The notes beneath the pieces were generated by a model, which did not search any database, was not told the DNA's origin, and saw only the letters and a program-made list of their open reading frames with translations. From the NCBI RefSeq assembly GCF_002854065.1, contig NZ_CP024147.1: DNA of 64,000 nt, one strand, 5' to 3'. The translations under genes were made by a program, and so were the position numbers. Each line of letters starts with the position of its first letter. Position 1 is the first letter of the stretch. This DNA is from Escherichia coli (GTDB taxonomy: Bacteria; Pseudomonadota; Gammaproteobacteria; Enterobacterales; Enterobacteriaceae). Shown here piece by piece: positions 25,100-44,172 of the stretch.

Positions 25100-25528
25100 A
25101 TGACATTGCCCTACCCATATTCTTCCTCCGCACGCTTTTACGCACTGCGCCTCCTCCCCGGGCAGGAAGTTTTTTCCCAGCTACACGCTTTTGCACAGCA
25201 GCAGCAACTTCATGCCGCCTGGATTGCAGGCTGTACCGGTAGCCTGACTGACATCGCCTTGCGCTATGCCGGGCAAGAAGGCACCACGCTCCTGAACGGT
25301 ACATTCGAAGTGATCTCACTAAACGGCACGTTGGAACAGAGTGGTGAGCATCTTCATCTCTGCGTTTCCGATCCACACGGCACGATGCTTGGCGGTCATA
25401 TGATGCCCGGCTGTACCGTGCGGACCACGCTTGAACTGGTGATCGGTAGCCTTGAGGAACTGGCGTTTAGCCGCCAACCTTGCGCGCTTTCTGGTTACGA
25501 CGAGTTGCATATTTCCCCCGTTAAATAA
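25100..25528 (+). CDS. DUF296 (PPC domain) protein; first gene of accessory transporter operon
   Basis: 142-aa ORF MTLPYPYSSSARFYALRLLPGQEVFSQL...GEHLHLCVSDPHGTMLGGHMMPGCTVRTTLELVIG; PPC/DUF296-like pattern; 22 nt upstream of next gene. Confidence 0.6.
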   Translation: MTLPYPYSSSARFYALRLLPGQEVFSQLHAFAQQQQLHAAWIAGCTGSLTDIALRYAGQEGTTLLNGTFEVISLNGTLEQSGEHLHLCVSDPHGTMLGGHMMPGCTVRTTLELVIGSLEELAFSRQPCALSGYDELHISPVK

Positions 25529-25550
25529 CTACTTTCAGAGAGGTTTTCTT

Positions 25551-27502: not shown

Positions 27503-28173
27503 CGTTAAATCAGATAACTTATCGCTGGCCTGACGCGGCAACGGATTGTCTTTGCGACATTTCTCTGCAACTCAAACAAGGTGAATGGTTGGCTCTGACC
27601 GGCGACAATGGTGCAGGAAAATCGACGCTGTTACGAGTAATGGCAGGTCTTCTTACGCCCACAGCCGGTACGGTTATGCTGCAACAACAGGCGATGAAAA
27701 ACCTGAAAAACCGCCAGCGCGCGGCAAAGGTTGGCGTACTGTTTCAGGAAGCGGAAAACCAGCTTTTTCACAGCACCGTCGCTGACGAGATCGCATTTGG
27801 TTTGAAACTGCAAAAATGCCCGGCGGATGAAATCACTCAACGTACCAATGCTGCCCTGCAATGCTGTCAGTTAGCAGACACTGCCAGCGCGCACCCGTTG
27901 GATCTGCATAGTGCGCAGCGACGGATGGTCGCCGTCGCCTGCCTGGAAGCACTCTCTCCGCCACTATTGCTGCTGGACGAGCCGAGTCGGGATTTTGACG
28001 AAAATTGGTTGAGCGTGTTTGAAAGCTGGCTGGAGAAGTGCCGCCAGCGAGGCACGAGCGTCGTAGCAATCAGTCATGACGCCGCATTTACCCGGCGTCA
28101 TTTCTCTCGTGTGGTGCGACTGGAAGATGGTCTAATCAGGAACATTAATCCACCAGACGATATTCACCCGTAG
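27496..28173 (+). CDS. ABC/ECF transporter ATPase subunit 2 (degenerate signature motif)
   Basis: Track ORF 27463..28173 trimmed to ATG 27496 (ATGTTAA overlap with upstream stop); Walker A GDNGAGKST, Walker B LLLDEP, signature replaced by LHSAQRR. Confidence 0.75.
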   Translation: MLTLNQITYRWPDAATDCLCDISLQLKQGEWLALTGDNGAGKSTLLRVMAGLLTPTAGTVMLQQQAMKNLKNRQRAAKVGVLFQEAENQLFHSTVADEIAFGLKLQKCPADEITQRTNAALQCCQLADTASAHPLDLHSAQRRMVAVACLEALSPPLLLLDEPSRDFDENWLSVFESWLEKCRQRGTSVVAISHDAAFTRRHFSRVVRLEDGLIRNINPPDDIHP

Positions 28174-28858
28174 CGGTCATCATTAAGGTCAAATTTGCAG
28201 GTAGACTCTCTTCCAGCACCCGGCGAACATTCGGCCCGTCGGTACGGTCATAAAAAGCTTCTGCGTCTGCCAGCGATACCCCTCCCGCCAGCTTGCGCCC
28301 TACCAGTCGTTCCCGCAACGCAGTAGCTGGCGCGTTGATAAAGATCGAGAATTCACAAAATTGCGCAAGCTGGCACCACTTCTCGTCGTCCAGCAACAAC
28401 CAGTTTCCTTCGACGATGACGAGTGGTGCGGTAACGTGCAACGCATCTTCAACAGGATCATGCTTTTGTCGATCGTACTGCGGCCACGTACAATCCCCTT
28501 CCACGACCTGGCGTAGATTTTCCGCCAGTTTCGCAACGTCAAATGTCTCTGGTGCGCCTTTGAAGGGGCGCAATTGATGCGCATCCAGCCAGCTATTGTA
28601 ATGGTGAAAACCATCCATCGGCAGCGTCTGAATAGCGGGCAGTTCCGGGTCTTGTTGCGCGAGATATTCCCAGAAGGTGGTTAGGGTTGATTTACCCGTC
28701 CCCGGCGGAGCGCAAAGAAAAACCACCGTACGCCGCTGCGGATTTACCGTCTGTAAGGCCGCCAACATGTGCAGCAACGGTTTATGTACATTTTCAATCT
28801 CTTCGTTCTGGTACTGTGCCTGTATCTTCAGCCCATTCACCGTTAATTCAATTTTCAC
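28145..28858 (-). CDS. yggC: P-loop nucleoside/pantothenate kinase-like protein YggC
   Basis: 237-aa ORF with Walker A APPGTGKST; convergent with the ATPase gene. Confidence 0.85.
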   Translation of the reverse strand: MKIELTVNGLKIQAQYQNEEIENVHKPLLHMLAALQTVNPQRRTVVFLCAPPGTGKSTLTTFWEYLAQQDPELPAIQTLPMDGFHHYNSWLDAHQLRPFKGAPETFDVAKLAENLRQVVEGDCTWPQYDRQKHDPVEDALHVTAPLVIVEGNWLLLDDEKWCQLAQFCEFSIFINAPATALRERLVGRKLAGGVSLADAEAFYDRTDGPNVRRVLEESLPANLTLMMTATGEYRLVD

Positions 28859-29364
28859 GGCGTTAATTCCTTTAAGGTGGTCGTTACTGCCAGCGTCAGC
28901 GCCGTTTTGACCATTCCGCTAAAACGCGCCTCTGACCAGACGGCGAAATCGGCGAACTTCATCGCTTTCAACGCGTCATAGAGCGTCGCATTGCAGGTTA
29001 TGCTATTGACGTTGCTGATAAAATCCCAAGTCATGTCATCGGCAAATCCGGGCGTTTCATCCTGTTCTTTCAGGTAATGCCAGTACTGGGAAAAATGCGT
29101 GATATCGGCGTACAGCCATTTATCCATTTTCCCCAGCGCATAAATCAAACGCAGTGCAACATCAATATCGTCAAGCGGGCCGCTTTGGGCGAGTAACGGC
29201 TTCACTGCATATTCCACGATCTCTTCATCATTATCGACAAACAGCGACGGCAGAAACTGGCGTATTCCCTGGAGCAAAATAGAATGCGCAGTTTTCATAA
29301 ATGAAAATAAATTGTCCTGTGCATCCAGTTGTTCAAGCACATCATCTTCTGTCAGCGTCGCCAT
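28855..29364 (-). CDS. yggD: YggD (FumE-like / MtlR-related) protein
   Basis: 169-aa ORF MATLTEDDVLEQLDAQDNLFSFMKTAHSILLQ... Confidence 0.85.
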   Translation of the reverse strand: MATLTEDDVLEQLDAQDNLFSFMKTAHSILLQGIRQFLPSLFVDNDEEIVEYAVKPLLAQSGPLDDIDVALRLIYALGKMDKWLYADITHFSQYWHYLKEQDETPGFADDMTWDFISNVNSITCNATLYDALKAMKFADFAVWSEARFSGMVKTALTLAVTTTLKELTP

Positions 29365-29385
29365 TGGTCTTCCGATAGATCACCA

Positions 29386-30351
29386 TCAATGCAGGGAGTC
29401 TATTATATTACACGTTTGGTCCGCGCCGCCGATCAGTAATGTCTGCGTCCGCACCCCATTCGCCGTCTGTTGGATACCGTTCACCAGCTCACCGCCCGTC
29501 ACGCCCGTAGCGCTAAAGAGGATATCGTTCCCCCTCACCAGTTCATCGAGCGAGTACACACGGTTAACGTCAACGCCCATTGCCTTGCAACGCTTGCGCT
29601 CCTGCTCTGCAATCTGCCGATTTTCCGTGTAATCCCCTTTAGCCTGACAAAAATCGATTAATTCCGCCTGCATATCTCCGCCTAACGCTTTGACTGCACA
29701 GGCAGAAATCACGCCTTCTGGCGCACCGCCGATGGTGTACATCACATCGTAAGGATTATCCTGCCAGCAGGTCAGCACGCTGGCGGCGACATCGCCATCC
29801 GGCAGGGCAAAAACCTTCACGCCCAGCTGTGTTGCTTCTTCAATCGCGGCACTCAGACGCGGTTTATCCAGCGTAACCATGCGCAGCTTGTCCAGCGGTT
29901 TACCTAACGCCCGCGCCACGTTACGCAAGTTGTCCGCCAGAGGCAAAGACAGATCAATCGCCCCGGCAGTCAGTCGATTAACAACCAGCTTTTTCATATA
30001 CATATCGGGCGCATGTAACAGGCTATCTCGAGGGGCGAAAGCCATGACCGCCAGCGCATTGCTCTGCCCCATCGCCACCATCCGCGTGCCTTCAATGGGA
30101 TCAACCGCGATATCGACTTCTGGCCCATCGCCTTTGCCCACCTCTTCGCCAATCCACAGCATCGGCGCATGGTCAATTTCTCCTTCGCCGATAACCACTC
30201 GTCCACGAAAAGCGACTTCGTTTAATGCCTGGCGCATCGCGGTGACCGCCAGGCCATCAATTTTATTTTTGTCGCCACATCCGGTTTGCGGCCAGGCAGC
30301 CAACGCTGCCTGTTCCGTAACGCGAAATAATGGCCACGCCAGGGACATCAT
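29386..30351 (-). CDS. yggF: fructose-1,6-bisphosphatase class II (GlpX paralog)
   Basis: 321-aa ORF; GlpX-family FBPase. Confidence 0.88.
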   Translation of the reverse strand: MMSLAWPLFRVTEQAALAAWPQTGCGDKNKIDGLAVTAMRQALNEVAFRGRVVIGEGEIDHAPMLWIGEEVGKGDGPEVDIAVDPIEGTRMVAMGQSNALAVMAFAPRDSLLHAPDMYMKKLVVNRLTAGAIDLSLPLADNLRNVARALGKPLDKLRMVTLDKPRLSAAIEEATQLGVKVFALPDGDVAASVLTCWQDNPYDVMYTIGGAPEGVISACAVKALGGDMQAELIDFCQAKGDYTENRQIAEQERKRCKAMGVDVNRVYSLDELVRGNDILFSATGVTGGELVNGIQQTANGVRTQTLLIGGADQTCNIIDSLH

Positions 30352-31625
30352 TGCGCGGCCTCCCCGATATCAACGCCAAATTGTGCCAGCAGATATTTCT
30401 CGGCCTGTTCATTCCAGATGCCGTGCGTTTCCTCAACCAGCCGCGCCAACTCTTTAAACAGCGGATCGGTTTTGCCTTTTTCGGCAAAATCGGCAATGGC
30501 AGTGAGCGGCATGGTCACGCCGTTATAAATGAGTTTTTTACCGCCAGGGATATCCGGCAGATTGAGCACGGTTTCTGGCACCGCATCCAGGCCACCGATA
30601 TGGGTCACCATAAACGACGGCTGTAACTGCCTAGTGGCGCTAAGGGCAATCGCCTCTTTCATGTCGTCCGTTGAACCGCCGGATGTACCGACAACGTGCG
30701 TGCTGTTGTAATGAACGTTGTAGAAATTAAACGGCACTTTGAAGTTTTTATCCGTCGGCCCGGCAAAGAAGTTCAGACAGCCATCTTCCGCCAGTAATTC
30801 ATCAGCCATCTCAACGACAGCAGGCACCGCCGCATAAACAAAAATGTCATCGAACCCGGCATCTCCTGTCAGCGCCCGCAGCATCTGGACAGGATCGCTC
30901 ATCCCTTTGGTATTCACATACACCAGCTCAATGCCTTTACTGGCCGCCAGTTCCACCGGCAGCAGCTTCTGTACCTGCGCCAGACGTTTGTCGTCGATAT
31001 CGACCACCACCACCCGCGACGGTTGTATGCCGCCGTTAATGGCGTAATCGATAGCGCCAATGCCCATCGGACCTGCACACGCCAGCAGTGCAATATTGCC
31101 GCCAGGTTTGACGCCCATGCGATGCTCATAAACATATTGCGTGGTGTGATAATTGGCATGATAAGCACCAATAATGCAGCACATAGGCTCTGCCAGCGAC
31201 GCCGCAGCAAAATAAGAGCCGTGATACGGTAATACGCAGCCCAAATTAATGGCGATTTCGGGAATAATCATATAAGTGGCATTGCCGCCAAAATATTCGT
31301 AGCTGTAGCCCGCTGAATATCCGCTTGGTAACCCCATCGCCGGTTGCAATACAAAACGCTGGCCTTTTTTATATTTGCCAGTGAGATTTTTACCCACTTC
31401 GATAATAACCCCGGCACATTCATGCCCGGTAATGACCGGATGATTTTCTAAATCGTCGGGTACGCGTTTATGTTCACTACCGAGTAACGCCGCTTTCCAG
31501 GTGGATAAACAGACGCTGTCAGAAATCACACTCACCAGTAATTCATTATCGGTAATTTCTGGCAGTTCAAATTCGCGCAGACGGACATCCCGCTTGCCAT
31601 AAATAGCAGCAACTTTGGTTTTCAT
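30348..31625 (-). CDS. yggP: zinc-type polyol/sugar-phosphate dehydrogenase YggP
   Basis: 425-aa ORF MKTKVAAIYGKRDVRLREFELPE...GHECAGVI; MDR superfamily. Confidence 0.85.
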   Translation of the reverse strand: MKTKVAAIYGKRDVRLREFELPEITDNELLVSVISDSVCLSTWKAALLGSEHKRVPDDLENHPVITGHECAGVIIEVGKNLTGKYKKGQRFVLQPAMGLPSGYSAGYSYEYFGGNATYMIIPEIAINLGCVLPYHGSYFAAASLAEPMCCIIGAYHANYHTTQYVYEHRMGVKPGGNIALLACAGPMGIGAIDYAINGGIQPSRVVVVDIDDKRLAQVQKLLPVELAASKGIELVYVNTKGMSDPVQMLRALTGDAGFDDIFVYAAVPAVVEMADELLAEDGCLNFFAGPTDKNFKVPFNFYNVHYNSTHVVGTSGGSTDDMKEAIALSATRQLQPSFMVTHIGGLDAVPETVLNLPDIPGGKKLIYNGVTMPLTAIADFAEKGKTDPLFKELARLVEETHGIWNEQAEKYLLAQFGVDIGEAAQ

Positions 31626-31639
31626 TTTTACCTCTGTAA

Positions 31640-33028
31640 TCAGTGTTTATGTTCGGCGGTTAATTGATTAAATAAAGTGTCGAGTTTTGGATCGCCAATA
31701 TAGTTATTAATCAATATCAGTGGTTTATCCGTCACACGTTTCACGCGCCCTTCCAGACTGGCATGAGTAACGACGATATCCGCATCCGCAGGCACGTTTT
31801 CTATGGCGTAATGTTTTACTTCAATTGCCAGCCCCGCTTTTTCCAGGCGTTTACGGAAGGTGGTCGCGCCCATCGCACTGGAGCCCATCCCCGCATCGCA
31901 AACAAAGGCGATACGCTTAACCCTGCTTAACGAGAATGCACCCTCTTGTTTCATCGCCTTAACCGCATTGGCTGACTGAGCAAACTCATCTTCGCTCTCC
32001 GTTTCCACCGTTTTTTCCATCTTCAGTATCAGCGAAGTGATAGCAAAGGACACCAGGGTACCTACCGTAACACCGGCAATTGTCGCCAGGAACGAACCTT
32101 TCGGCGTCAGCGCCAGGTAAGCAAAGATAGACCCCGGACTTGGGCCAGCCACCAGACCACCGTCCAGTAAGTTAAACATCCAGGTGCCAGACATACCGCC
32201 CGCAATCATGGCAATAATAGTCAGCGGCTTCATCAGCACATATGGGAAATACAGTTCGTGGATGCCACCGAGGAAGTGAATAATCATCGCCCCGGGCGCA
32301 GAACGTTTACTCATCCCTTTACCAAACAAGGTAAACGCCAGCAGCAGCCCCAGGCCCGGACCTGGGTTAGAGGCCACCATAAAGAAGATGGATTTACCGT
32401 TAACCGAAGCCTGTTGCATTCCCAGCGGATAATAGACGCCCTGATCGATCGCATTATTAAGGAAAAGCACTTTCGCCGGTTCATTGATGACTGACAGCAG
32501 AGGCAGATAACCCGCATGTACCAGCGCCTCAATACACTCTTTGACGAAAGTATTGGCAATTAACACCGCCGGGCCGATCACTTCAAAACCCAGCAGACAA
32601 AGGAGCATCCCCGCGATACCTAATGAGAAGTTATTGATAACCATCTCAAAACCGGCAGGTATGCGTTTTTCCAGTGCCTTATCAACATATTTTATGACCA
32701 GACCACCGAGCGGCCCCATAATCATTGAGCCAAGGAACATCGGGATCTCTGCGCCGACGATCACACCAATAGTACCTATTCCGCCCATGACCGCGCCGCG
32801 TTTACCGCCGACCAGATGACCACCGGTAGAACCAATCATCACGGGCAATAAATAGGTAATCATCGGGCCGACAATTTTGGCGAAATGTTCGTTAGGCAGC
32901 CAACCGGTGGGAATAAATAACGCAGTAATAAAACCCCAGGCAATAAAAGCACCAATATTGGGGATGACCATTGCAGTCAAAAAGCCCCCAAAAGCCTGGA
33001 CCTTTGCACGAGCAGACTTGTTTTCCAT
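31640..33028 (-). CDS. cmtA: mannitol-type PTS enzyme IICB (cryptic)
   Basis: 462-aa membrane ORF MENKSARAKVQAFGGFLTAMVIPNIGAFIAWG... Confidence 0.9.
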   Translation of the reverse strand: MENKSARAKVQAFGGFLTAMVIPNIGAFIAWGFITALFIPTGWLPNEHFAKIVGPMITYLLPVMIGSTGGHLVGGKRGAVMGGIGTIGVIVGAEIPMFLGSMIMGPLGGLVIKYVDKALEKRIPAGFEMVINNFSLGIAGMLLCLLGFEVIGPAVLIANTFVKECIEALVHAGYLPLLSVINEPAKVLFLNNAIDQGVYYPLGMQQASVNGKSIFFMVASNPGPGLGLLLAFTLFGKGMSKRSAPGAMIIHFLGGIHELYFPYVLMKPLTIIAMIAGGMSGTWMFNLLDGGLVAGPSPGSIFAYLALTPKGSFLATIAGVTVGTLVSFAITSLILKMEKTVETESEDEFAQSANAVKAMKQEGAFSLSRVKRIAFVCDAGMGSSAMGATTFRKRLEKAGLAIEVKHYAIENVPADADIVVTHASLEGRVKRVTDKPLILINNYIGDPKLDTLFNQLTAEHKH

Positions 33029-33055
33029 AATATTATCCTGTAGAGGAGAGAGTAA

Positions 33056-33499
33056 TTATCCGCGGCTGATAATGTCCGCTAATTGTTTTTCTGATGATGC
33101 TGTTAAGAGTTGTTCGAGTATTTCTTCTTCGCACAGTAATTCACTTAACGCCTGAATAGCGCCAATGTGCGAATCGGCATCGGCAGCAGAGAGTCCGATG
33201 AGTAATTTAATTGGTTCGTCATTCCCCGGAAAATAAACACCTTGTTCAAGTAATGTCAAAGACATCCCGGTTTTAAGCGCCCCACATTCCGGTCGCGCAT
33301 GAGGCATTGCCACGCCTGGTGCGAGAATATAATAAGGGCCATTGTTGATGGTGGAATCTTTAATAGCCTGAATGTAATTCTCGCTGATATAGTTTTTATC
33401 CAGCAATGATGCCATCGAGAAATCGATAGCTTCCTGCCAATCTTTTGCTGAATGTATAACTGAGATTGATGATTCTGGAAAATAATCACTAAGCCGCAT
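33056..33499 (-). CDS. cmtB: mannitol-type PTS enzyme IIA (cryptic)
   Basis: 147-aa ORF; PTS EIIA(Mtl) fold with active-site His region GVAMPHARPE. Confidence 0.9.
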   Translation of the reverse strand: MRLSDYFPESSISVIHSAKDWQEAIDFSMASLLDKNYISENYIQAIKDSTINNGPYYILAPGVAMPHARPECGALKTGMSLTLLEQGVYFPGNDEPIKLLIGLSAADADSHIGAIQALSELLCEEEILEQLLTASSEKQLADIISRG

Positions 33500-33570
33500 A
33501 AATTATCCTTATTTTATTTTTAGGGTGCCGTCCGGCGGTAAAAATAAAATACTCGGGTAATGACTCCAAC

Positions 33571-34074
33571 TTATTGATAGTGTTTTATGTTCAGATAATG
33601 CCCGATGACTTTGTCATGCAGCTCCACCGATTTTGAGAACGACAGCGACTTCCGTCCCAGCCGTGCCAGGTGCTGCCTCAGATTCAGGTTATGCCGCTCA
33701 ATTCGCTGCGTATATCGCTTGCTGATTACGTGCAGCTTTCCCTTCAGGCGGGATTCATACAGCGGCCAGCCATCCGTCATCCATATCACCACGTCAAAGG
33801 GTGACAGCAGGCTCATAAGACGCCCCAGCGTCGCCATAGTGCGTTCACCGAATACGTGCGCAACAACCGTCTTCCGGAGACTGTCATACGCGTAAAACAG
33901 CCAGCGCTGGCGCGATTTAGCCCCGACATAGCCCCACTGTTCGTCCATTTCCGCGCAGACGATGACGTCACTGCCCGGCTGTATGCGCGAGGTTACCGAC
34001 TGCGGCCTGAGTTTTTTAAGTGACGTAAAATCGTGTTGAGGCCAACGCCCATAATGCGGGCAGTTGCCCGGCAT
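33571..34074 (-). CDS. insB: IS1 InsB' frame (expressed as InsAB' by -1 frameshift)
   Basis: 167-aa ORF overlapping insA 3' end; IS1 transposase catalytic region. Confidence 0.9.
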
Positions 34075-34268
34075 CCAACGCCATTCATGGCCATATCAAT
34101 GATTTTCTGGTGCGTACCGGGTTGAGAAGCGGTGTAAGTGAACTGCAGTTGCCATGTTTTACGGCAGTGAGAGCAGAGATAGCGCTGATGTCCGGCGGTG
34201 CTTTTGCCGTTACGCACCACCCCGTCAGTAGCTGAACAGGAGGGACAGCTGATAGAAACAGAAGCCAC
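33993..34268 (-). CDS. insA: IS1 InsA (transposition inhibitor / N-terminal part of InsAB' transposase)
   Basis: 91-aa [46 protein letters not shown]... Confidence 0.95.
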
Positions 34269-34653
34269 TGGAGCACCTCAAAAACACCATCATACACTAA
34301 ATCAGTAAGTTGGCAGCATCACCAAATACTCGTGCGGTTTAATGAAAGCAATTGGGTACGCGAGAAGAAAAACCCCATAAACCAAAATAATAAAACCTTA
34401 AATAACAACAATATGAAATTGATATCTTTAAAGTCAACTTTGTGTTTGTTATGTTTATCACAAAATCAACATTTTGTTTGTTATTGTATTTGTGATGCAT
34501 ATCTCTATTTATTTATTGAATGTTCGAAAACATACTTTTCTAATGCAATGTTTTTTCGCTATACCCCTTTATAGAATCTGAATTCTCACCTGTCGGCTGT
34601 TTTCTCCTCATCTCATGTGACATATTCCCACACTTTACTCAAGGAAGATTGTC

Positions 34654-35562
34654 ATGAAAGCACCTGTTTCATTAACCTCATTTCGCCCACAAAAATCTCT
34701 TGCTATCGCCATCGGCGTGCTTGCCGTGGTTGTGCTGCCATTTCTCTCGTATTACACCGTTAATGAAGGTGAACGCGGCATTTTGCTGCGCTACGGAAAA
34801 ATCGTAAAAGTTGCCGAGCCGGGTCTGGGTTTTAAGATCCCGTTTATGGAAAGCGTGGAGAAAATTTCCACGCGTAATCAGGCTGTGGTCTATCAGGGAT
34901 TACAGGCCTACAGCCGCGACCAGCAACCGGCACAAATGACAGTATCAGTCAGCTTCCACATTAAACCTTCAGAAGCAGGCGCGGTTTATACCACCTACAA
35001 CACCATTGAAGCATTAAAAGATCGTCTGATTGTCCGTCAGTTGCCAACTCAACTGGAGAACGTTTTCGGCCAATATACCGCCATCAGCGCTGTACAGGAT
35101 CGTACAAAACTGGTTCAGGATCTGCAAAATGCCATGCGCAAAGCCGTTGTTGGGCCAGTGGTAATTGACGGGGTCCAGATTGAAAATATTGATTTTTCTG
35201 ACGCTTATGAAAAGTCGATTGAAGACCGAATGAAAGCAGAAGTCGCCATTGCCACGCGTAAGCAAAATCTGGAAACAGAGAAAATCCAGGCGCAAATAGC
35301 GGTAACTCAGGCCCAGGCAGAAGCAGACAGTAAACTGGCGGCAGCCAAAGCAGAAGCGGAAACTATTCGCGTAAGAGGCGCGGCAGAGGCTGAAACTATT
35401 CGTTTAAAAAGTGCGGCTGAAGCAGAAGCAATCCGCCTGCGCGGTGAAGCTCTGCGGGATAATCCCGGACTTGTAGCCCTCACCACTGCCGAACGTTGGG
35501 ACGGTAAACTGCCCGATACCATGATCCCCGGCAGCACAGTTCCGTTTATCTCTACTAAGTAA
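34654..35562 (+). CDS. SPFH/band-7 (prohibitin/stomatin-like) membrane protein with C-terminal Ala/Glu-rich repeats
   Basis: 302-aa ORF; N-terminal TM helix IAIGVLAVVVLPFL, SPFH-like core, C-terminal repeats AEAETIRVRGAAEAETIRLKSAAEAEAIRLRGEA; preceded by 330-bp AT-rich region. Confidence 0.7.
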   Translation: MKAPVSLTSFRPQKSLAIAIGVLAVVVLPFLSYYTVNEGERGILLRYGKIVKVAEPGLGFKIPFMESVEKISTRNQAVVYQGLQAYSRDQQPAQMTVSVSFHIKPSEAGAVYTTYNTIEALKDRLIVRQLPTQLENVFGQYTAISAVQDRTKLVQDLQNAMRKAVVGPVVIDGVQIENIDFSDAYEKSIEDRMKAEVAIATRKQNLETEKIQAQIAVTQAQAEADSKLAAAKAEAETIRVRGAAEAETIRLKSAAEAEAIRLRGEALRDNPGLVALTTAERWDGKLPDTMIPGSTVPFISTK

Positions 35563-35604
35563 AAAAAGGGCCGCTTTCGCGGCCCTTGAGAGTGATGGCA
35601 AAAG

Positions 35605-35725
<121 letters not shown>

Positions 35726-35781
35726 TTACCAATAATCTAAAGGGCCGCTTTCGCGGCCCTTCTCACAAAACGTCTTACTGA

Positions 35782-37773
35782 TTACAGCAGCGCTTTTGCT
35801 TTCGCAACAACGTTATCAACAGTGAAGCCGAACTCTTCAAACAGCAGCTCTGCCGGAGCAGATTCACCGAAGGTGGTCATACCGACGATAGCACCGTTCA
35901 GGCCAACATACTTGTACCAGTAGTCAGCAATACCCGCTTCTACCGCAACGCGTGCAGTAACCGCTTTCGGCAGTACGGATTCACGGTAAGCCGCATCCTG
36001 CTTGTCGAATGCATCGGTAGACGGCATGGAAACCACGCGCGCCTTCACGCCTTCGGCAGTCAGTTTTTCGTAGGCGGCAACAGCCAGTTCAACTTCCGAA
36101 CCGGTCGCGATGAAGATCAGTTCCGGCTGACCGGCACAGTCTTTCAGCACATAACCACCGCGCGCGATGTTTGCCAGCTGCTCTTCAGTACGCTCCTGCT
36201 GCGCCAGGTTCTGACGGGAGAGGATAAGCGCGGTCGGGCCGTCCTGACGCTCAACACCGTATTTCCATGCCACTGCAGATTCAACCTGGTCACATGGACG
36301 CCATGTAGACATGTTCGGGGTCACGCGCAGAGAAGCAACCTGCTCTACCGGCTGGTGAGTCGGGCCATCTTCGCCCAGACCGATGGAGTCGTGGGTGTAA
36401 ACCATCACCTGACGCTGTTTCATCAGCGCAGCCATACGTACGGCATTACGTGCGTATTCTACGAACATCAGGAAGGTGGAGGTGTACGGCAGGAAGCCAC
36501 CGTGCAGGGAGATACCGTTAGCAATCGCGGTCATACCGAACTCGCGAACACCGTAGTGGATGTAGTTACCCGCAGCATCTTCGTTGATTGCTTTAGAACC
36601 AGACCACAGGGTCAGGTTAGACGGTGCCAGGTCAGCGGAGCCGCCGAGGAATTCCGGCAACAGCGGACCGAACGCTTCGATAGCATTCTGCGACGCTTTA
36701 CGGCTGGCGATTTTCGCCGGATTAGCCTGCAGTTTAGCAATGAACTCTTTCGCTTTCGCGTCGAAGTCAGACGGCATTTCACCTTTCATACGACGGGTGA
36801 ATTCAGCCGCTTCCTGCGGGAAGGCTTTGGCGTAAGCCGCGAATTTCTCATTCCAGGCAGCTTCTTTCGCCTGGCCTGCTTCTTTCGCATCCCACTGCGC
36901 ATAGATTTCAGACGGGATTTCGAACGGTGCGTATTTCCAGCCCAGCTGTTCGCGGGTCAGAGCGATTTCTGCATCACCCAGCGGCGCACCGTGGGAGTCG
37001 TGAGTACCGGCTTTGTTCGGGGAACCGAAACCGATGATGGTTTTGCACATCAGCAGGGACGGTTTGTCAGTCACTGCGCGCGCTTCTTCTACTGCGCGTT
37101 TGATGGATGCTGCGTCATGACCGTCGATGTCGCGAATAACGTGCCAGCCGTAAGCTTCGAAACGCATTGCGGTGTCGTCGGTGAACCAGCCTTCAACGTG
37201 ACCATCAATAGAGATACCGTTGTCATCGTAGAACGCAATCAGTTTACCCAGCTTCAGCGTACCCGCCAGAGAGCAAACTTCGTGGGAGATGCCTTCCATC
37301 ATGCAGCCGTCGCCCATGAAGGCGTAGGTGTAGTGATCGACAATGTCGTGGCCCGGACGGTTAAACTGCGCCGCCAGCGTTTTTTCTGCAATCGCCATAC
37401 CTACTGCGTTGGCAATACCCTGCCCCAGCGGACCGGTGGTGGTTTCCACACCAGCGGTGTAACCCACTTCCGGGTGGCCCGGAGTTTTAGAGTGCAGCTG
37501 ACGGAAGTTTTTCAGTTCTTCCATCGGCAGATCGTAACCGGTGAGGTGCAGCAGGCTGTAGATCAGCATGGAGCCGTGGCCGTTGGACAGCACGAAGCGG
37601 TCACGGTCAGCCCAGGACGGATTCTGCGGGTTGTGTTTCAGGAAATCACGCCACAGGACTTCGGCAATGTCAGCCATACCCATAGGGGCACCCGGGTGAC
37701 CGGATTTGGCTTTCTGTACTGCGTCCATGCTCAGCGCACGAATAGCATTGGCAAGCTCTTTACGTGAGGACAT
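35782..37773 (-). CDS. tktA: transketolase 1
   Basis: Track ORF 35782..37803 trimmed to [41 protein letters not shown]... (663 aa). Confidence 0.95.
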
Positions 37774-38050
37774 TTTGACTCCAGATCGGATGATGAAGGG
37801 CACGCCCTTAACGACTTGACGACAGCGCGTTTTGGGCTACGCCGGAAAATTTGCCAACAATTTACCGCAAGCCGCGCGTCATGTACATGGAACATCCTTT
37901 TGCCGCTTCAGAAATCTCTGGATCATGCTCGCATGTTGCGCAATCTACTCGCCCGTCCGCTGCGCTTTTCCTTATACTGAGACTGAGCGTCGGTTCACCT
38001 GCAAACGGCGCATTTTTAGAATAATCCTGACCTTGTGCGGAAGAAAAAAC

Positions 38051-38809
38051 ATGAAAATTCGCGCCTTATTGGTAGCAATGAGCGTGGCAACGGTACTGAC
38101 TGGTTGCCAGAATATGGACTCCAACGGACTGCTCTCATCAGGAGCGGAAGCTTTTCAGGCTTACAGTTTGAGTGATGCTCAGGTGAAAACCCTGAGCGAT
38201 CAGGCATGTCAGGAGATGGACAGCAAGGCGACGATTGCGCCAGCCAATAGCGAATACGCTAAACGTCTGACAACCATTGCCAACGCGCTAGGCAACAATA
38301 TCAACGGTCAGCCAGTGAATTACAAAGTGTATATGGCGAAGGATGTGAACGCCTTTGCGATGGCTAACGGCTGTATCCGCGTCTATAGCGGGCTGATGGA
38401 TATGATGACGGATAACGAAGTCGAAGCGGTGATCGGTCACGAAATGGGGCACGTGGCGTTAGGCCATGTGAAGAAAGGGATGCAGGTGGCACTTGGTACA
38501 AATGCCGTGCGAGTCGCGGCGGCCTCTGCGGGCGGTATCGTCGGCAGTTTATCGCAATCACAGCTTGGTGATCTGGGCGAGAAATTAGTCAATTCGCAAT
38601 TCTCCCAGCGCCAGGAAGCAGAGGCGGATGATTACTCCTACGATTTACTGCGCCAACGCGGCATCAGTCCGGCAGGTCTTGCCACCAGCTTTGAAAAACT
38701 GGCAAAACTGGAAGAAGGTCGCCAAAGCTCAATGTTTGACGACCATCCAGCATCCGCCGAACGCGCCCAGCATATTCGCGATCGTATGAGCGCGGACGGG
38801 ATTAAGTAA
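38051..38809 (+). CDS. loiP: outer-membrane lipoprotein metalloprotease LoiP (YggG), M48 family
   Basis: Track ORF 37832..38809 trimmed to MKIRALLVAMSVATVLTGCQ (lipobox) ... HEMGHVALGH zinc motif; 252 aa. Confidence 0.92.
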   Translation: MKIRALLVAMSVATVLTGCQNMDSNGLLSSGAEAFQAYSLSDAQVKTLSDQACQEMDSKATIAPANSEYAKRLTTIANALGNNINGQPVNYKVYMAKDVNAFAMANGCIRVYSGLMDMMTDNEVEAVIGHEMGHVALGHVKKGMQVALGTNAVRVAAASAGGIVGSLSQSQLGDLGEKLVNSQFSQRQEAEADDYSYDLLRQRGISPAGLATSFEKLAKLEEGRQSSMFDDHPASAERAQHIRDRMSADGIK

Positions 38810-38820
38810 GGCATGGTGGT

Positions 38821-39120
38821 GCCAAACGTAGTTCAGATAAGGCATTTACGCCGCATCTGACATAAATGGCACATTCACTACCTCGTGCGCATTGCCGGAT
38901 GCGATGCTGGCGCATCTTATCCGGCCTACGGGTGCCAAACGTAGGTCAGATAAGGCGTTCACCCCGCATCTGACATGAATGGCACATTTGTTACCTTGTG
39001 CGCATTGCCGGATGCGATGCTGGCGCATCTTATCCGGCCTACGGGTGCCGAACGTAGGTCGGATAAGGCGTTCACGCTGCATCCGACATTAATGGCACGT
39101 TTTACCCGTGCGCATCGCAT
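38821..39120. repeat. BIME cluster: about 2.6 tandem copies of a ~113-bp REP-containing unit
   Basis: Unit gccaaacgtag..cagataaggc..ccgcatctgacat..gcgcattgccggatgcgatgctggcgcatcttatccggcctacgggt repeated from 38821, 38934 and 39046. Confidence 0.9.
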
Positions 39121-39127
39121 CTGGTGC

Positions 39128-40048
39128 TTACTCGCCCTTTTTCGCCGCCTGAATATACAGCATTTCCAGCGCCAGCGTTGCCGCTGCCAGAGCGGTGATT
39201 TCCGACTGATCGTATGCCGGAGCCACTTCCACTACGTCCATCCCAACGATGTTGAGATCTTTCAGGCCGCGTACCAGTTTAATAGCGCGATCGGAGGTCA
39301 GACCGCCAATTACCGGCGTACCGGTTCCCGGCGCAAATGCAGGATCCAGGCAGTCGATATCAAAGGTCAGGTAAACCGGCATATCACCCACAATTTGTTT
39401 CACCTGGGCGATAACGTCATCCACGCTGCGATCGTTCACCTGGCAGGCGTCCAGCACGGTAAAGCCGTTGTCTTTATCAAATTCGGTACGAATACCAATC
39501 TGCACGGAATGATTCGGATCGATCAGACCTTCTTTCGGCGCGGTATAGAACATGGTGCCGTGGTCAAATTCACAACCGTTCGCGTAGGTATCGGTGTGGG
39601 CGTCAAAGTGTACCAGCGCCATTTTGCCGAAATGCTTCGCATGAGCACGCAGCAGCGGCAGCGTAACAAAGTGGTCACCACCGAAGGAGAGCATACGCTT
39701 ACCGGCAGCCAGCAGCTTCTCGGCGTGTGCCTGCAGTTTTTCGCTCATCTCACGGGCATCGCCGAAGGCATATACCAGATCGCCGCAGTCCACCACGTTC
39801 AGACGCTCGCGCATGTCGAAATTCCACGGGAAGCGGTTGTGTTCCCAGGCCAGGTTAGTCGAAACCTGGCGAATCGCCGCCGGGCCATGACGACCACCGG
39901 CACGGCCAGAGGTGGCCATGTCGAACGGCACGCCGGTGATCACCCAGTCGGCATCGCTGTCATACGGCTGGAAGTTCATCGGCAGGCGTAAAAAACCAAA
40001 GGCGTTGGAAACCAGTGAGTTATCGTATTGATGACCTAAGGTGCTCAT
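39128..40048 (-). CDS. speB: agmatinase (agmatine ureohydrolase)
   Basis: 306-aa [63 protein letters not shown]...; arginase fold. Confidence 0.95.
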
Positions 40049-40071
40049 GGATGGACTCCTATTACAAAGTC

Positions 40072-40118
40072 GATATAAAAAAACCCTTCCGCGTCGTTAG
40101 GCCCGACGAGGAAGGGTT
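40072..40118 (-). terminator. rho-independent terminator 25 nt upstream of speB start
   Basis: Minus strand aacccttcctcgtcgggcctaacgacgcggaagggtt followed by T7. Confidence 0.6.
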
Positions 40119-40183
40119 GGATTTGCGAAACACAAGTTTGTGCTAATTATCGCCTTAAATGGGCGAGGCATCAAGCGAGGTTG

Positions 40184-40650
40184 CTATTTCCGACACGGTG
40201 GCGGCGCATAGCCATTGTTATCTGCCGGAAAGGCTTGTCCAGAGCACGGCGGCAGCGCGTTTTGCGCCTGGCCTTGTAATTCAAAGGCGGCAAAGCCGAT
40301 TACACCGGTATTACGCACATCGCCTTGCGCCGAATTGGCTGCGTAGGAATCAGCAACGTTGGCGAACTGAAAAGCCGCTTCGGTATGTTTATCTTTGCGG
40401 AATCCTTTAATCGCTAACGAATCTCCGGCATTCACAATATAGCCGTTGTTATTCAGCGAACCTTGCTTGCCGTTCAGCACATCCAGGCCATCAACCGTAG
40501 CAACGATCTCGTAGTTGGTGTTACGACTGTAATTACGAACATATAATTGATAATTCATTCCGACTCTGGCGTGGACAATATAGCGTGGTTCATTATTGGA
40601 TGAATCATAAACACGCGTAATAGGTAGAGAATTAAAATTACCATCGCGAA
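40184..40650 (-). pseudogene. 3' fragment of unknown gene, 5'-truncated by IS1 copy 2 (Asn/Tyr/Gly-rich, two C-terminal Cys)
   Basis: Minus-strand frame is open from IS1 boundary (40650) to stop at 40184, about 155 codons ending ...NALPPCSGQAFPADNNGYAPPPCRK; track shows only the part from the first Met (40184..40558); not recognisable as speA. Confidence 0.45.
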
Positions 40651-40665
40651 GGTAATGACTCCAAC

Positions 40666-41169
40666 TTATTGATAGTGTTTTATGTTCAGATAATGCCCGA
40701 TGACTTTGTCATGCAGCTCCACCGATTTTGAGAACGACAGCGACTTCCGTCCCAGCCGTGCCAGGTGCTGCCTCAGATTCAGGTTATGCCGCTCAATTCG
40801 CTGCGTATATCGCTTGCTGATTACGTGCAGCTTTCCCTTCAGGCGGGATTCATACAGCGGCCAGCCATCCGTCATCCATATCACCACGTCAAAGGGTGAC
40901 AGCAGGCTCATAAGACGCCCCAGCGTCGCCATAGTGCGTTCACCGAATACGTGCGCAACAACCGTCTTCCGGAGCCTGTCATACGCGTAAAACAGCCAGC
41001 GCTGGCGCGATTTAGCCCCGACGTATCCCCACTGTTCGTCCATTTCCGCGCAGACGATGACGTCACTGCCCGGCTGTATGCGCGAGGTTACCGACTGCGG
41101 CCTGAGTTTTTTAAATGGCGGAAAATCGTGTTGAGGCCAACGCCCATAATGCGGGCGGTTGCCCGGCAT
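40666..41169 (-). CDS. insB: IS1 InsB' frame
   Basis: 167-aa ORF; differs from copy 1 at several residues ([22 protein letters not shown]...). Confidence 0.9.
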
Positions 41170-41363
41170 CCAACGCCATTCATGGCCATATCAATGATTT
41201 TCTGGTGCGTACCGGGTTGAGAAGCGGTGTAAGTGAACTGCAGTTGCCATGTTTTACGGCAGTGAGAGCAGAGATAGCGCTGATGTCCGGCAGTGCTTTT
41301 GCCGTTACGCACCACCCCGTCAGTAGCTGAACAGGAGGGACAGCTGATAGAAACAGAAGCCAC
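41088..41363 (-). CDS. insA: IS1 InsA
   Basis: 91-aa ORF; one residue differs from copy 1 (NTIFRHL vs NTILRHL). Confidence 0.95.
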
Positions 41364-41418
41364 TGGAGCACCTCAAAAACACCATCATACACTAAATCAG
41401 TAAGTTGGCAGCATCACC

Positions 41419-42058
41419 CTCATGGGGTTATACATCAGCCGGGATTTCAAAAGCCTTCGGTGATGATAAATATCAACAGCAGTATTTATCACAGCGCAGC
41501 GGGTTTGCTATAGGTGAGGATGGTTTTGCATGGGGCCGCATGGACTATGATTCCGCGCTAATTGTCGATGCTACGGATTTGCCCGAAGATCAGTATTTCG
41601 AGGTGCGTAATCGTAATTCGGCACCAACGATTGTAAAAGGTGGTCAGAAAACAACGCTTTCTATGGAGCCGTATCGTAAGGTCGCACCAGAAGCTGAACA
41701 ACTCTACAGCAATAATATGGATGCTTATTACAATCTGAAAACGGAGTCTACTTCTACCTGGGCGAAACCAGGGCAAGTTTATAAAGTTAAACTTTCCGCA
41801 ACCCGGAATCTGACCGTCACCGGACGCCTTTATTTTGACGGTCAACCGTTGATTAACGCCAGGGTCGTTGGTGGGAATGCAATGGCAGATACTGATGGCT
41901 TATTTGTTGGTGATTTTACACTCCAGACAAATGAACAACTTAAATCTGTGAAAGTTAAACAAGACGGGCGTGATTTCATCTGTCCACTGCTGGATGAAAA
42001 TATCAAACTTGCGCAGGGTATTATGCAAATTCGTGAGGTTAATTGTGAAGTTCAATAA
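41419..42058 (+). pseudogene. C-terminal fragment of fimbrial outer-membrane usher, 5'-truncated by IS1 copy 2
   Basis: Frame open from IS1 boundary; C-terminus ...KVKQDGRDFICPLLDENIKLAQGIMQIREVNCEVQ parallels the two-Cys usher tail of FimD (...VQVKWGEEENAHCVANYQLPPESQQQLLTQLSAECR) as I recall it. Confidence 0.55.
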
Positions 42059-42062
42059 ATGG

Positions 42063-42755
42063 ATGGCTCTTTTTTTAGGATTGTTGGCTGGGTTTTCTAC
42101 CGTAGCGCAAGCTATTGAGGTGTTTCCTATTGTAAAAGAAATAAAGGAAGAAACGCCAAGAGATAATTATATTACCGTTAAGTCTATGTTTAAGCTGAAT
42201 GATAAAGTTGATGTTCCAGAACCAGACAAACAGCAATATGAATTCGTTACGCTTGATCTCTATCACATAAAAAACCCAGGCGATAAAAAAGAAAATATGG
42301 AAAAGGAATTGGGGACGGAAAACCCTGCGCTGGTATTTTCACCGACCAAACTGGTTATTCCATTCGGTGAAGAAAGGAAAATTCGCATCATGCCTATGCG
42401 TCCGGTTGATCATGAAACGGTATACAGGCTGCGTGTACGACCAAGTTATCCGGAACAGGCCCTTGAAAAAGGGAAGGTCCGTTTTGCTATTGGATATGAT
42501 GTTTTAATTCGTTATCTCCCGTCAGGTAAGCACACTCAGGGGATACAGATTAGCTGTGATAAAAACAACTGGCATTTGAAAGCAACCGGTAATGTAAGAA
42601 GTGAATTACGTAAATTGGTGATTGATGGCCGGATGCAGGAGGGGAATTTCAATGTTTATCCGGAAAACAGCAGAACTCTTAACGTGAATAAACGTCTTTC
42701 CTTCGAAATGGATGGAAAAACGCTGGTTTACGAAAATTGTCTGCTTAAGGAGTAA
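42063..42755 (+). CDS. putative periplasmic fimbrial chaperone (PapD-like)
   Basis: Track ORF 41970..42755 trimmed to MALFLGLLAGFSTVAQA signal peptide; about 230 aa; RYLP-type motif (FAIGYDVLIRYLP); follows usher fragment. Confidence 0.45.
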   Translation: MALFLGLLAGFSTVAQAIEVFPIVKEIKEETPRDNYITVKSMFKLNDKVDVPEPDKQQYEFVTLDLYHIKNPGDKKENMEKELGTENPALVFSPTKLVIPFGEERKIRIMPMRPVDHETVYRLRVRPSYPEQALEKGKVRFAIGYDVLIRYLPSGKHTQGIQISCDKNNWHLKATGNVRSELRKLVIDGRMQEGNFNVYPENSRTLNVNKRLSFEMDGKTLVYENCLLKE

Positions 42756-42758
42756 TTC

Positions 42759-43649
42759 ATGCGCTCATGGTTCTGTTTAATTGCACTGTTGTTGCCTGGC
42801 ATTGTATTTGCGAGTGGTGAGATGATTATTCAGCCTCAAAGTAAGGGGGCGGTTCACTTCCTTGCCCGTGGTCTTTCTTCTGGCGGCGACAATATTATCT
42901 CTGCTGCTTACAGCGCCGGGCGGCCTCTGTCTGTTTTATTTAGCCCGACAGGAAACGGACATTGTGAGGGCGATTTTTTGGCTGTGGATCATCTCCGGTT
43001 GTCTGTTCAGCAAGCAGGTGAAAATACTTCTTATACCTGTGGCGTTCCGGTAACGATCGAAAGTCCTTCGAAGGATGGGATCCTGCGCCTTCAGTTAACG
43101 AACTCGACGTCTGTTCAGGATTTCTCCTCATTGATGAGAACAGACGGGGGCCTGAGACAGCAAATTGGTAATTTGCAAATAACCCAGCAAGGTAATGAAA
43201 GTTTTATTGTCCCGATTTATCTGGATCTCACTATTTTGCAGAATCAGGTGGTTACGATAGCTGCTTCATTTGAAAAGCCATCTCTTCAACTTGGGCTGGT
43301 AGGCCCGGAACATGATGCTTCAGAGACTGTGGGTCTGCGCGTCAGCAAAACATTACAGGCAGGTGAGGAGGCGATGCTTTATCGCGTAACATTTGAATCT
43401 TCTCAACTGAAGGATAATAGGTTCCATTTACTATCCTCTGTTGATCATCAGTTTATTCCTTATCAAATCTATATATCTGGTGTCGAAGTTACCCCTTCTC
43501 AGCCTTATGTAAGTGAGCTGCCGCAGGGAAAGGCAACTTCTGAATTGCTTGATGTAAGATTCAATTTGTCTGGCCGAGCTGTTCGTGGCATGGCTGCCGG
43601 TTCGCGCTTACTTGATACGGTAACCGCAGTAGTAACCCCGGAAAGTTAA
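42759..43649 (+). CDS. putative fimbrial tip adhesin or minor subunit (secreted, 296 aa)
   Basis: Signal peptide MRSWFCLIALLLPGIVFA; two Cys in N-terminal half; C-terminal beta-strand-like TVTAVVTP; operon position. Confidence 0.45.
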   Translation: MRSWFCLIALLLPGIVFASGEMIIQPQSKGAVHFLARGLSSGGDNIISAAYSAGRPLSVLFSPTGNGHCEGDFLAVDHLRLSVQQAGENTSYTCGVPVTIESPSKDGILRLQLTNSTSVQDFSSLMRTDGGLRQQIGNLQITQQGNESFIVPIYLDLTILQNQVVTIAASFEKPSLQLGLVGPEHDASETVGLRVSKTLQAGEEAMLYRVTFESSQLKDNRFHLLSSVDHQFIPYQIYISGVEVTPSQPYVSELPQGKATSELLDVRFNLSGRAVRGMAAGSRLLDTVTAVVTPES

Positions 43650-43662
43650 ACTGGAGAATAAA

Positions 43663-44172
43663 ATGAAATTAACTTTTTTACCTGTTGTGCTGTCGGTAGC
43701 ATTTTGTAGTCAGGTTCAGGCTGTTGTACCGGTCAAAACATCTATTGATGTGCAGGCTGAAATCAGTACTGCGGTTAATATTTATGTTAATGGCCAGGAT
43801 GTCACCAATAAATCTATCAGTGTCAATCTGAAAGATGAAGGTGGCTATATGAAAGGCAGTACGCCACCTTTCCAGTTTGTTGGCAACGCCAGTTCTGTTG
43901 CCCTTTCGCTCCAGGCTCCGCCAGCGAATGGGTTGGTCGGCCCTGAAAATAAAGTTATGCCTTTACTGACATCCTGGTTCAATCCGGATGCGAATGCTGA
44001 AGTTTCGACAAGTTTTCCCTTTTCAAATATCAAGGTTTATCCAACGTTACAGGACGTACCTGATCCACAGAATGGTGTAAAAGTGGTATTTCGCTCGAAG
44101 GAGCGTAGCGAAACTTTCCCCTTGGGAACATATAGCGGGACTTATACCGTTATTGTAACGCCATCAGTTTAA
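43663..44172 (+). CDS. putative fimbrial subunit (secreted, 169 aa)
   Basis: Signal peptide MKLTFLPVVLSVAFCSQVQA; pilin-like size; C-terminal alternating hydrophobic strand GTYSGTYTVIVTPSV. Confidence 0.45.
   Translation: MKLTFLPVVLSVAFCSQVQAVVPVKTSIDVQAEISTAVNIYVNGQDVTNKSISVNLKDEGGYMKGSTPPFQFVGNASSVALSLQAPPANGLVGPENKVMPLLTSWFNPDANAEVSTSFPFSNIKVYPTLQDVPDPQNGVKVVFRSKERSETFPLGTYSGTYTVIVTPSV

Follow-up and report, generated by a model that had tools for sequence, protein, structure and literature searches.

The closest described relatives of the locus analysed here belong to the α (or "alternate") class of chaperone-usher fimbriae, which includes CS1, CFA/I, Tcf and Cbl. CFA/I (CfaA-B-C-E) and CS1 (CooB-A-C-D) are carried on an ETEC virulence plasmid and consist of four genes in the order chaperone-pilin-usher-adhesin, whilst Tcf of Salmonella Typhi (TcfABCD) and the Burkholderia cable pilus (CblBACD) are further members of the class.

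The stretch of Escherichia coli DNA that was analysed (64,000 nucleotides, referred to as the window) contains at 41419-44172 the end of an usher gene followed by genes for a chaperone, a two-domain subunit and a pilin. This region is very probably the 3′ remnant of a six-gene α-class chaperone-usher operon in a pheV genomic island, broken at an IS1 inversion junction and no longer giving rise to a fibre. With CFA/I and CS1 it shares the CooC_C and TcfC-type domains of the usher, a chaperone homologous to CfaA (E = 5e-18), subunit folds nearest to those of CfaB and CooA, a two-domain subunit resembling a tip adhesin and, presumably, donor-strand exchange at the outer-membrane usher. In contrast to these four-gene systems, the parent cluster has six genes in the order pilin-pilin-usher-chaperone-adhesin-pilin, neither CS1-pilin nor CfaE/CblD models recognise its pilins or adhesin, its usher is just ~21-23% identical, and it is found in the chromosome or in an island, joined to a Tad locus, with no Rns/CfaD-type regulator seen alongside it. 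Tcf and Cbl are the source of the best NCBIfam matches (TcfC and TcfA) and of the CblC match found by tblastn, but the scores lie far under the equivalog cut-offs, which indicates that these are not orthologues, and gene order and subunit number differ.

The usher fragment and the chaperone

The 3′ fragment of the α-type outer-membrane usher gene lies at 41419..42058 on the plus strand and covers the end of the barrel and the C-terminal domains (residues 642-853 of 853). Read from 41420 to 42058, it encodes the last 212 codons of an 853-residue usher and is 99% identical to the intact usher of strain TB06052, so that the window retains no more than the final 25% of the gene. The original prediction of an usher C-terminal fragment with a conserved cysteine pair is borne out: the fragment matches CooC_C in Pfam (E = 2.8e-8) and the TcfC usher in NCBIfam (E = 5e-5), and Cys829 and Cys850 are invariant in all 16 of 16 homologues. 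A full-length homologue matches the Pfam TcfC E-set domain (5e-13) together with CooC_C, the models concerned being PF16967 and PF15976, and Pfam scans found no PF00577 match in either the fragment or the full-length protein. The NCBIfam TcfC model scores 80.2 bits (8.5e-23) against the full-length homologue, short of its equivalog cut-off of 1428 bits. In tblastn comparisons more than 95% of the usher's length aligned with ushers of the TcfC type, CblC among them, at 21-23% identity; for CblC itself the figures are 22% identity across 97% of the usher.

The next gene (42045..42755, plus strand) starts with GTG and overlaps the usher stop by 14 nt. The N-terminus MKFNKW is kept in homologues, which places the start at 42045 and yields a protein of 236 residues, rather than the 230 residues that had been predicted from the ATG at 42063. 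In a phmmer search of the PDB with the single sequence, the protein matched CfaA (6k73, 4y2o and 4ncd, best E = 6.8e-9), and the family profile matched CfaA with E = 4.9e-18; no other protein of known structure gave a significant match by sequence. These PDB matches settle its identity by homology, and the product of 42045-42755 is thereby established as a predicted CfaA-type periplasmic chaperone. The family has 68 homologues of 230-240 residues in Enterobacterales. Pfam, including PF00345 and PF02753, matched neither this protein nor, as far as annotation goes, any of the 68 homologues, and NCBIfam TcfA reached only E = 0.038 and 13.6 bits against a cut-off of 500 bits. The original prediction was to be given up if the protein had no hit among PapD-like chaperones; since the chaperone escapes the PapD Pfam models, a refutation test limited to those models would have wrongly rejected it.

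The two-domain subunit and the pilin

Two further genes follow on the plus strand, one for a protein of 296 residues (42759..43649), in which an N-terminal β domain precedes a C-terminal pilin domain, and one for a pilin-like subunit of 169 residues (43663..44172), assigned from its AlphaFold/Foldseek fold and from paralogy. The chaperone, 296-residue and 169-residue ORFs are intact, full length relative to homologues, tightly packed and 99-100% identical to their counterparts in intact operons. By inspection each has an N-terminus resembling a signal peptide, the candidate cleavage sites of the three ORFs, that of the chaperone among them, falling between TVAQA and IEV, IVFA and SGE, and QVQA and VVP. 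Of the three signal-peptide proteins originally predicted, the sizes of the second and third stand.

Sequence searches with these two proteins were uniformly negative. Pfam matched neither of them nor any of 7 adhesin and 18 pilin family members, SCPU (PF05229) included; NCBIfam returned nothing for either protein or for the upstream pilins of intact operons, and in the PDB neither the proteins nor the profiles of their families found a match. Both the proteins and the profiles were likewise without a sequence match to the families of CS1-type major pilins and CfaE/CblD adhesins, so the likeness to them is one of fold only. Because the PDB sequence searches were empty, fold prediction was needed instead. 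The AlphaFold model of the 169-residue pilin (pLDDT 86.6) retrieved CfaB, the major pilin of CFA/I, as the top Foldseek match (4y2l, E = 6e-5), ahead of the pilins of Csu, Caf1 and Pap/Fim, and the predicted folds of both subunits are nearest to CfaB, CooA and CsuA/B, that is, to the pilin (incomplete Ig-like) fold. In intact operons, the 170-residue pilin encoded upstream is a paralogue of the 169-residue pilin (hhalign probability 96.5%, E = 1e-9); the pilin family and the 296-residue family gave no significant hhalign match (probability 1.3%).

The model of the 296-residue protein is of medium confidence (pLDDT 69, with 55-70 in the N-terminal domain), and together with gene position and divergence it suggests a putative tip adhesin. 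The roles of chaperone, tip-adhesin-like protein and pilin that were first proposed are thus supported by the CfaA matches and the predicted folds, with that of adhesin kept as putative.

The usher domains, the CfaA matches and the predicted subunit folds place the system in the α class and not in the classical Pap/Fim class. That the cluster is instead classical, or of the archaic σ (Csu/SCPU) class, both of which have pilins lower in the Foldseek ranking, is extremely improbable, and the profiles first proposed for the check (PF00577, PF00345/PF02753 and SCPU) matched nothing.

The IS1 junction and the inversion

The remnant lies in an island anchored by tRNA-Phe (pheV, 49484..49559, minus strand, located with ARAGORN). 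The same pheV arrangement, with yqgA and speC adjoining, is found in the near-identical strain CUWW06. The GC content of the remnant is 0.40-0.46, as against 0.50-0.58 in flanking core genes, and these observations support its placement in a horizontally acquired genomic island at pheV, in an E. coli rich in IS1, in agreement with the AT-rich, acquired character first noted for it.

Immediately upstream is an IS1 of 768 bp (40651..41418, minus strand), whose terminal inverted repeats can be read and whose insA and insB genes are transcribed away from the fimbrial genes. It is 100% identical to two annotated IS1B-family copies of CUWW06. The 9-mers that flank it differ (CATCGCGAA and CTCATGGGG), so that there is no 9-bp target-site duplication, as is expected where a copy sits at a rearrangement junction; a second IS1 copy in the window, at 33556-34323, is flanked by the target-site duplication AAATACTCG. 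The first position after the element that is shared with other E. coli is 41419 exactly. On its other side is the 3′ fragment of a lipoprotein gene (40184..40650, minus strand), a gene that lies between speB and speA and forms the left breakpoint of the rearrangement. This gene is intact in CUWW06 (243 residues), and the window matches CUWW06 as far as L004 position 14766, inside it. An IS1 also interrupts the speB-speA lipoprotein gene in LY180 and others, but it is not the same insertion, since the copy in LY180 was inserted 16 bp from this one and is flanked by a target-site duplication of its own.

Comparison with CUWW06 shows that the break in the usher gene is one end of an IS1-associated inversion of ~35 kb. 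The left side of the window corresponds to the plus strand of CUWW06 and the right side to its minus strand, both at 99.95-100% identity, and the breakpoints fall in the lipoprotein gene beside speB and between usher codons 641 and 642. One junction is visible in the window, the other lying beyond the window end. A Shigella origin, suggested by the IS1 load, was set aside in view of the ~100% identity of the window to E. coli CUWW06. The exact IS1-usher junction was present in no complete E. coli genome of the collection searched and, judged from flanks that are 99.95-100% identical to a sister strain lacking the inversion, the break is very recent. In CUWW06 a different IS1 is found 35 nt into the usher coding sequence and the upstream pilin and Tad genes are absent, the head of the operon having been lost there earlier, to that other IS1.

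Truncation by IS1 was part of the original prediction and is confirmed in that the element abuts the usher at 41418/41419, although the plain insertion and deletion has to be replaced by the ~35-kb inversion. Adjacent deletions are a well-known behaviour of IS1, and CUWW06 shows such a loss at usher nucleotide 35; moreover, an inversion from that codon-12 IS1 followed by an adjacent deletion of codons 12-641 would contain a real deletion step. A simple insertion into the usher gene with upstream deletion and no other rearrangement is nonetheless very unlikely, given that speB and the lipoprotein fragment to the left of the IS1 have their CUWW06 counterparts at a distance of ~35 kb, in reversed orientation, and that pheV, yqgA, speC and nupG through to yggR follow the remnant in reverse order relative to tkt-loiP-speB. 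Furthermore, metK and ruvX are essential genes, and a plain deletion between the two breakpoints would take them out, whereas the window does contain, in inverted order, the stretch of this interval that runs from the pheV side down to yggR; in the inverted arrangement, metK and ruvX would fall beyond the right end of the window. Among IS1-mediated rearrangements in general, which include adjacent deletions and inversions arising by intramolecular transposition or by recombination between IS copies, the inversion described here is alike in that an IS1 exactly joins two distant chromosomal points and differs in that only one junction is visible.

The intact operon, its remnant and the Tad locus

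The search for an intact homologous operon and its clade that was first proposed led to the α-class six-gene operon, which is present in TB06052, four more E. coli genomes and more than 13 other genera; Hafnia paralvei and the S. marcescens plasmid p14VA2 are among the carriers of the intact module. These intact relatives do not have the canonical α order chaperone-major pilin-usher-tip adhesin that is seen in plasmid-borne α operons. By homology, the CfaA-like periplasmic chaperone of the intact operon would cap the pilin subunits and hand them to the TcfC/CooC-like outer-membrane usher, where they would be polymerised by donor-strand exchange, with the 296-residue two-domain subunit placed at the fibre tip as adhesin.

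Relative to this gene set, the window has lost two pilin-like genes, 641 usher codons and the operon promoter region. Neither the 5′ part of the usher (residues 1-641) nor the two upstream pilin genes and the Tad genes are found anywhere in the 64 kb, and with them have gone the signal peptide, the N-terminal domain, the plug and, up to its retained end, the β-barrel. What is kept is usher residues 642-853, the chaperone, the two-domain subunit and a single pilin paralogue, so that the window holds no full usher with a major subunit. With the usher barrel and the two pilin genes upstream of it missing, no fibre can be assembled, and the original expectation of a non-functional operon missing the usher 5′ part and a major pilin gene is upheld. 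Promoter-like matches in the remnant (12, versus 7.8 ± 2.9 in shuffled sequence) do not rise above background, nor do those of a terminator scan, and the three genes left whole probably are not expressed or yield periplasmic proteins only.

The full length of all three ORFs and their 99-100% identity to intact operons could be taken as a sign that they are still functional, either assembled by another usher, which is conceivable in principle, or as a periplasmic or secreted module. This is very unlikely, since the 5′ promoter region is lost and the IS1 is transcribed away from them. Intact ORFs are in any case expected after so recent a rearrangement. As a rule an usher accepts only its cognate chaperone-subunit complexes, which also argues against cross-assembly, and any match to the α-type ushers of this subfamily occurs in only 9 of 5426 E. 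coli genomes. A decayed operon remains the preferred reading, and the remnant itself represents ordinary genome decay, a further case of an operon destroyed by IS1 in an E. coli lineage rich in this element, with the decay of the island observed very soon after the event.

Of wider interest is the parent family, an unstudied α-like system, rare in E. coli, whose chaperone, pilins and adhesin are missed by the Pfam and NCBIfam models tried and are labelled "hypothetical protein" by RefSeq in the records examined. Surveys built on the classical PF00577/PF00345 profiles would probably overlook it.

In all 18 of 18 informative loci, which cover more than 13 genera and include a conjugative plasmid, a complete Tad/Flp locus lies immediately upstream of the cluster and is colinear with it. 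The linkage holds down to 33% usher identity (Aeromonas), and the Tad and chaperone-usher halves of the resulting ~18-kb unit (flp-tadV-rcp-tadZABCDEFG followed by pilin-pilin-usher-chaperone-adhesin-pilin) co-diverge (ρ = 0.87). A literature search on Tad-chaperone-usher linkage, on α-related fimbriae and on pheV/Tad/T6SS islands found no description of it, and the Hafnia alvei FB1 genome paper describes the tad locus as far as tadG only.

One possible, though doubtful, reading of these comparisons is that an uncharacterised α-like sub-class, instead of being an operon on its own, forms the conserved module at the 3′ end of the Tad/Flp "widespread colonization islands" of one lineage, with the ~18-kb unit inherited and mobilised whole and the two filaments coupled functionally or in their regulation, for instance in a two-stage adhesion. 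A shared history of horizontal transfer without functional coupling also explains the linkage and the co-divergence. The PprB regulon of Pseudomonas aeruginosa, in which Flp/Tad pili are co-regulated with CupE, is an earlier example of a Tad pilus being deployed alongside a chaperone-usher fimbria of non-classical type in biofilm formation; there the Tad and CupE loci lie apart and CupE is of the σ/archaic class, whereas here an α-like cluster is physically joined to the Tad locus at its 3′ end and the two may be co-regulated. If the linkage does reflect co-regulation or cooperation of two adhesive filaments, hosts such as Hafnia, Serratia or Pectobacterium would provide a tractable system for this combination of pilus types.

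The fimbrial remnant and its surroundings

The window DNA is E. coli chromosome. To the left of the remnant lie tkt, loiP and, both on the minus strand, speB (39128-40048) and an ORF of 124 aa (40184-40558), then a complete IS1 of 768 bp (40651-41418, insA/insB on the minus strand) whose terminal inverted repeats (GGTAATGACTCCAACTTATTGAT ... ATCAGTAAGTTGGCAGCATCACC) are legible in the sequence. To its right are four plus-strand ORFs encoding an usher fragment, a chaperone, a two-domain subunit and a pilin. The original prediction, which described an IS1-truncated chaperone-usher operon, started at 41419, and this is the exact point where the match to other E. coli restarts after IS1. The AT-richness it claimed is also seen, with a GC content of 0.40-0.46 in the remnant versus 0.50-0.58 in the flanks. 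The remnant sits in the pheV island; the tRNA-Phe gene itself (pheV) occupies 49484-49559, and yqgA and speC come after it.

The intact operon of E. coli strain TB06052 encodes, in order, a 179-aa pilin, a 170-aa pilin, the usher, the chaperone, a 296-aa subunit and a 169-aa pilin. Among 5426 complete E. coli genomes, only nine carry any part of it and five carry it intact. As predicted, the 64-kb window lacks any trace of the sequence for usher residues 1-641 and of both pilin genes that precede the usher, and their absence gives good support to the view that the remnant operon is non-functional. Transcription of IS1 runs away from the remnant, in which promoter-like matches show no excess over shuffled expectation.

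Two further features of the window were observed. A second IS1 copy (33556-34323), 98.96% identical to the first, lies between cmtB and the prohibitin gene; a 9-bp target-site duplication (AAATACTCG) flanks it, and the near-identical sister strain CUWW06 lacks it. Between the fimbrial remnant and pheV is a remnant type VI secretion cluster (44700-49123; tssB, tssC, tssK and truncated tssL); tssB is annotated as frameshifted in CUWW06, and a 325-aa ORF (48146-49123) appears to be a DotU/TssL N-terminal piece joined to a JetD (Wadjet) C-terminal fragment.

An inversion junction at the usher

To the left of the junction IS1, window segments 25108-33555 and 34324-40650 align with the plus strand of CUWW06 (100% and 99.95%); to its right, 41419-52000 and 63265-64000 align with the minus strand (99.95% and 100%). 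CUWW06 keeps the usual order of speB, lipoprotein, speA ... metK ... yggR ... speC, yqgA, pheV and island. Since the two sides of the junction lie on opposite CUWW06 strands, the window differs from that strain by an inversion of about 35 kb. The left breakpoint is inside the lipoprotein gene between speB and speA, between CATCGCGAA and TAGCATATT, and the right breakpoint is at usher codon 641/642, between CTGTCGATAA and CTCATGGGG. IS1 is present at the visible junction without a target-site duplication around it; this is the one inversion junction within the window, the second lying past its right end.

A plain deletion between the breakpoints is unlikely, as it would take out essential genes such as metK and ruvX. 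Of that interval, the window shows the pheV-proximal part up to yggR, in inverted order; metK and ruvX would fall beyond its right end.

In CUWW06 a different IS1 sits at nucleotide 35 of the usher coding sequence, and neither the Tad locus nor the two upstream pilin genes are present, so loss of the operon's head predates the inversion. Immediately upstream of the decapitated CUWW06 usher, a pair of identical IS1 copies some 350 bp apart flanks regulator fragments (CUWW06 locus L002:4431-6768), and these copies are possible donors of the junction IS1. Two histories fit the data and give the same picture within the window: the inversion ended within the usher gene and codons 12-641 would survive about 35 kb away, or it started from the IS1 at codon 12 and an IS1 adjacent deletion then removed codons 12-641. 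In LY180 and several other strains the same lipoprotein gene holds an independent IS1 insertion, 16 bp from the window breakpoint and with its own duplication, TTCCAGTTC (locus L003:9185-10693), and the gene (window 40184-40650) looks like a local IS1 target.

A non-canonical member of the alpha class

The usher fragment (41420-42058, plus strand, 212 residues) corresponds to residues 642-853 of the 853-aa TB06052 protein at 99% identity. As these residues alone are present, it retains no more than the last part of the barrel plus the C-terminal domains, and the signal peptide, N-terminal domain, plug and rest of the barrel are lost. It matches Pfam CooC_C (CS1-pili formation, C-terminal; E = 2.8e-8) and the NCBIfam TcfC usher model (5e-5). 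The full-length homologue, named 'TcfC E-set like domain-containing protein' in RefSeq, scores 8.5e-23 on the latter and matches TcfC E-set (5e-13) and CooC_C in a Pfam scan that returned no PF00577 match. Its alignments with CblC and other TcfC-type ushers span more than 95% of the protein, with 21-23% identity. The predicted conserved Cys pair was borne out: all 16 homologues compared, which represent more than 13 genera, have Cys829 and Cys850.

The three downstream genes are full length, are 99-100% identical to their intact-operon copies, and are tightly packed, with a 14-nt overlap and then gaps of 3 and 13 nt. The chaperone (236 aa, 42045-42755, plus strand) was correctly recognised; the ATG at 42063 proposed as its start is less favoured than the GTG at 42045, because the resulting MKFNKW N-terminus is conserved among homologues. 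Neither the protein nor its 68 homologues match Pfam. A phmmer search of the PDB returned the CFA/I chaperone CfaA alone (6k73, 4y2o, 4ncd; E about 1e-8), and the family profile matched CfaA at 4.9e-18 over profile positions 60-221. The chaperone assignment is thus sound, but the type is the 'alternate' one of CfaA/CooB.

For the 296-aa subunit (42759-43649, plus strand) and the 169-aa pilin (43663-44172, plus strand), neither the protein nor its family profile matched NCBIfam, Pfam or the PDB. The AlphaFold model of the former is an all-beta, two-domain structure with a mean pLDDT of 69, rising to 80-92 in its C-terminal half. Its gene is by far the most divergent of the cluster (mean identity 35%, versus 54-63% for usher and chaperone); high divergence is typical of receptor-binding tip adhesins, and the protein is a putative tip adhesin. 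The pilin model is good (pLDDT 86.6), and Foldseek gave the CFA/I major pilin CfaB as best match (E = 6e-5), followed by Csu, Caf1 and Pap/Fim pilins. By hhalign (probability 96.5%, E = 1e-9), this pilin is paralogous to the 170-aa pilin whose gene precedes the usher in intact operons.

All sequence-level evidence points to the usher and chaperone belonging to the alpha (class 5, alternate) family of CS1, CFA/I, Tcf and Cbl. The classical usher (PF00577), PapD (PF00345) and SCPU profiles suggested beforehand gave no signal in the cluster. The parent operon differs in gene order from plasmid-borne alpha operons, which run chaperone-pilin-usher-adhesin, and has three pilin paralogues; CS1-pilin and CfaE/CblD models fail to recognise its subunits, and the cluster scores far below Tcf equivalog cut-offs. 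It is therefore treated as a non-canonical alpha-class variant, of which the window feature is a degraded remnant. The original observation is confirmed and its interpretation supported, refined by the alpha class, the inversion junction and the non-canonical layout.

Linkage of intact clusters to Tad/Flp loci

Outside the window, every one of the 18 informative loci, which cover more than 13 genera and a plasmid (loci L001:1-14754, L005-L015 and L017-L024), has the six-gene cluster colinear with a complete Tad/Flp locus and directly downstream of it, 240-590 bp beyond the tadG-like gene. These include E. coli TB06052, Hafnia, Pragia and Pectobacterium and, among loci with upstream flank from a species-dereplicated genome scan, Mixta, Izhakiella, Pluralibacter, Serratia, Phytobacter, Budvicia, Leminorella, Intestinirhabdus and two MAGs. 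On a conjugative Serratia marcescens plasmid the module is complete, running from the regulator and flp gene through the last pilin. In Aeromonas the linkage is partial: a tadG-like match precedes the usher by about 3 kb, and that locus gave no hit for the pilins or the remaining Tad genes.

No description of the linkage was found in the searchable literature, and the account of the tad locus in the Hafnia alvei FB1 genome paper stops at tadG. The linkage could reflect functional coupling or mere transfer as one island. The Tad and chaperone-usher halves co-diverge (Spearman rho 0.87, n = 12, the points being phylogenetically non-independent). Unlike the remnant, which is ordinary genome decay, the parent family and its Tad attachment are a modestly interesting lead.
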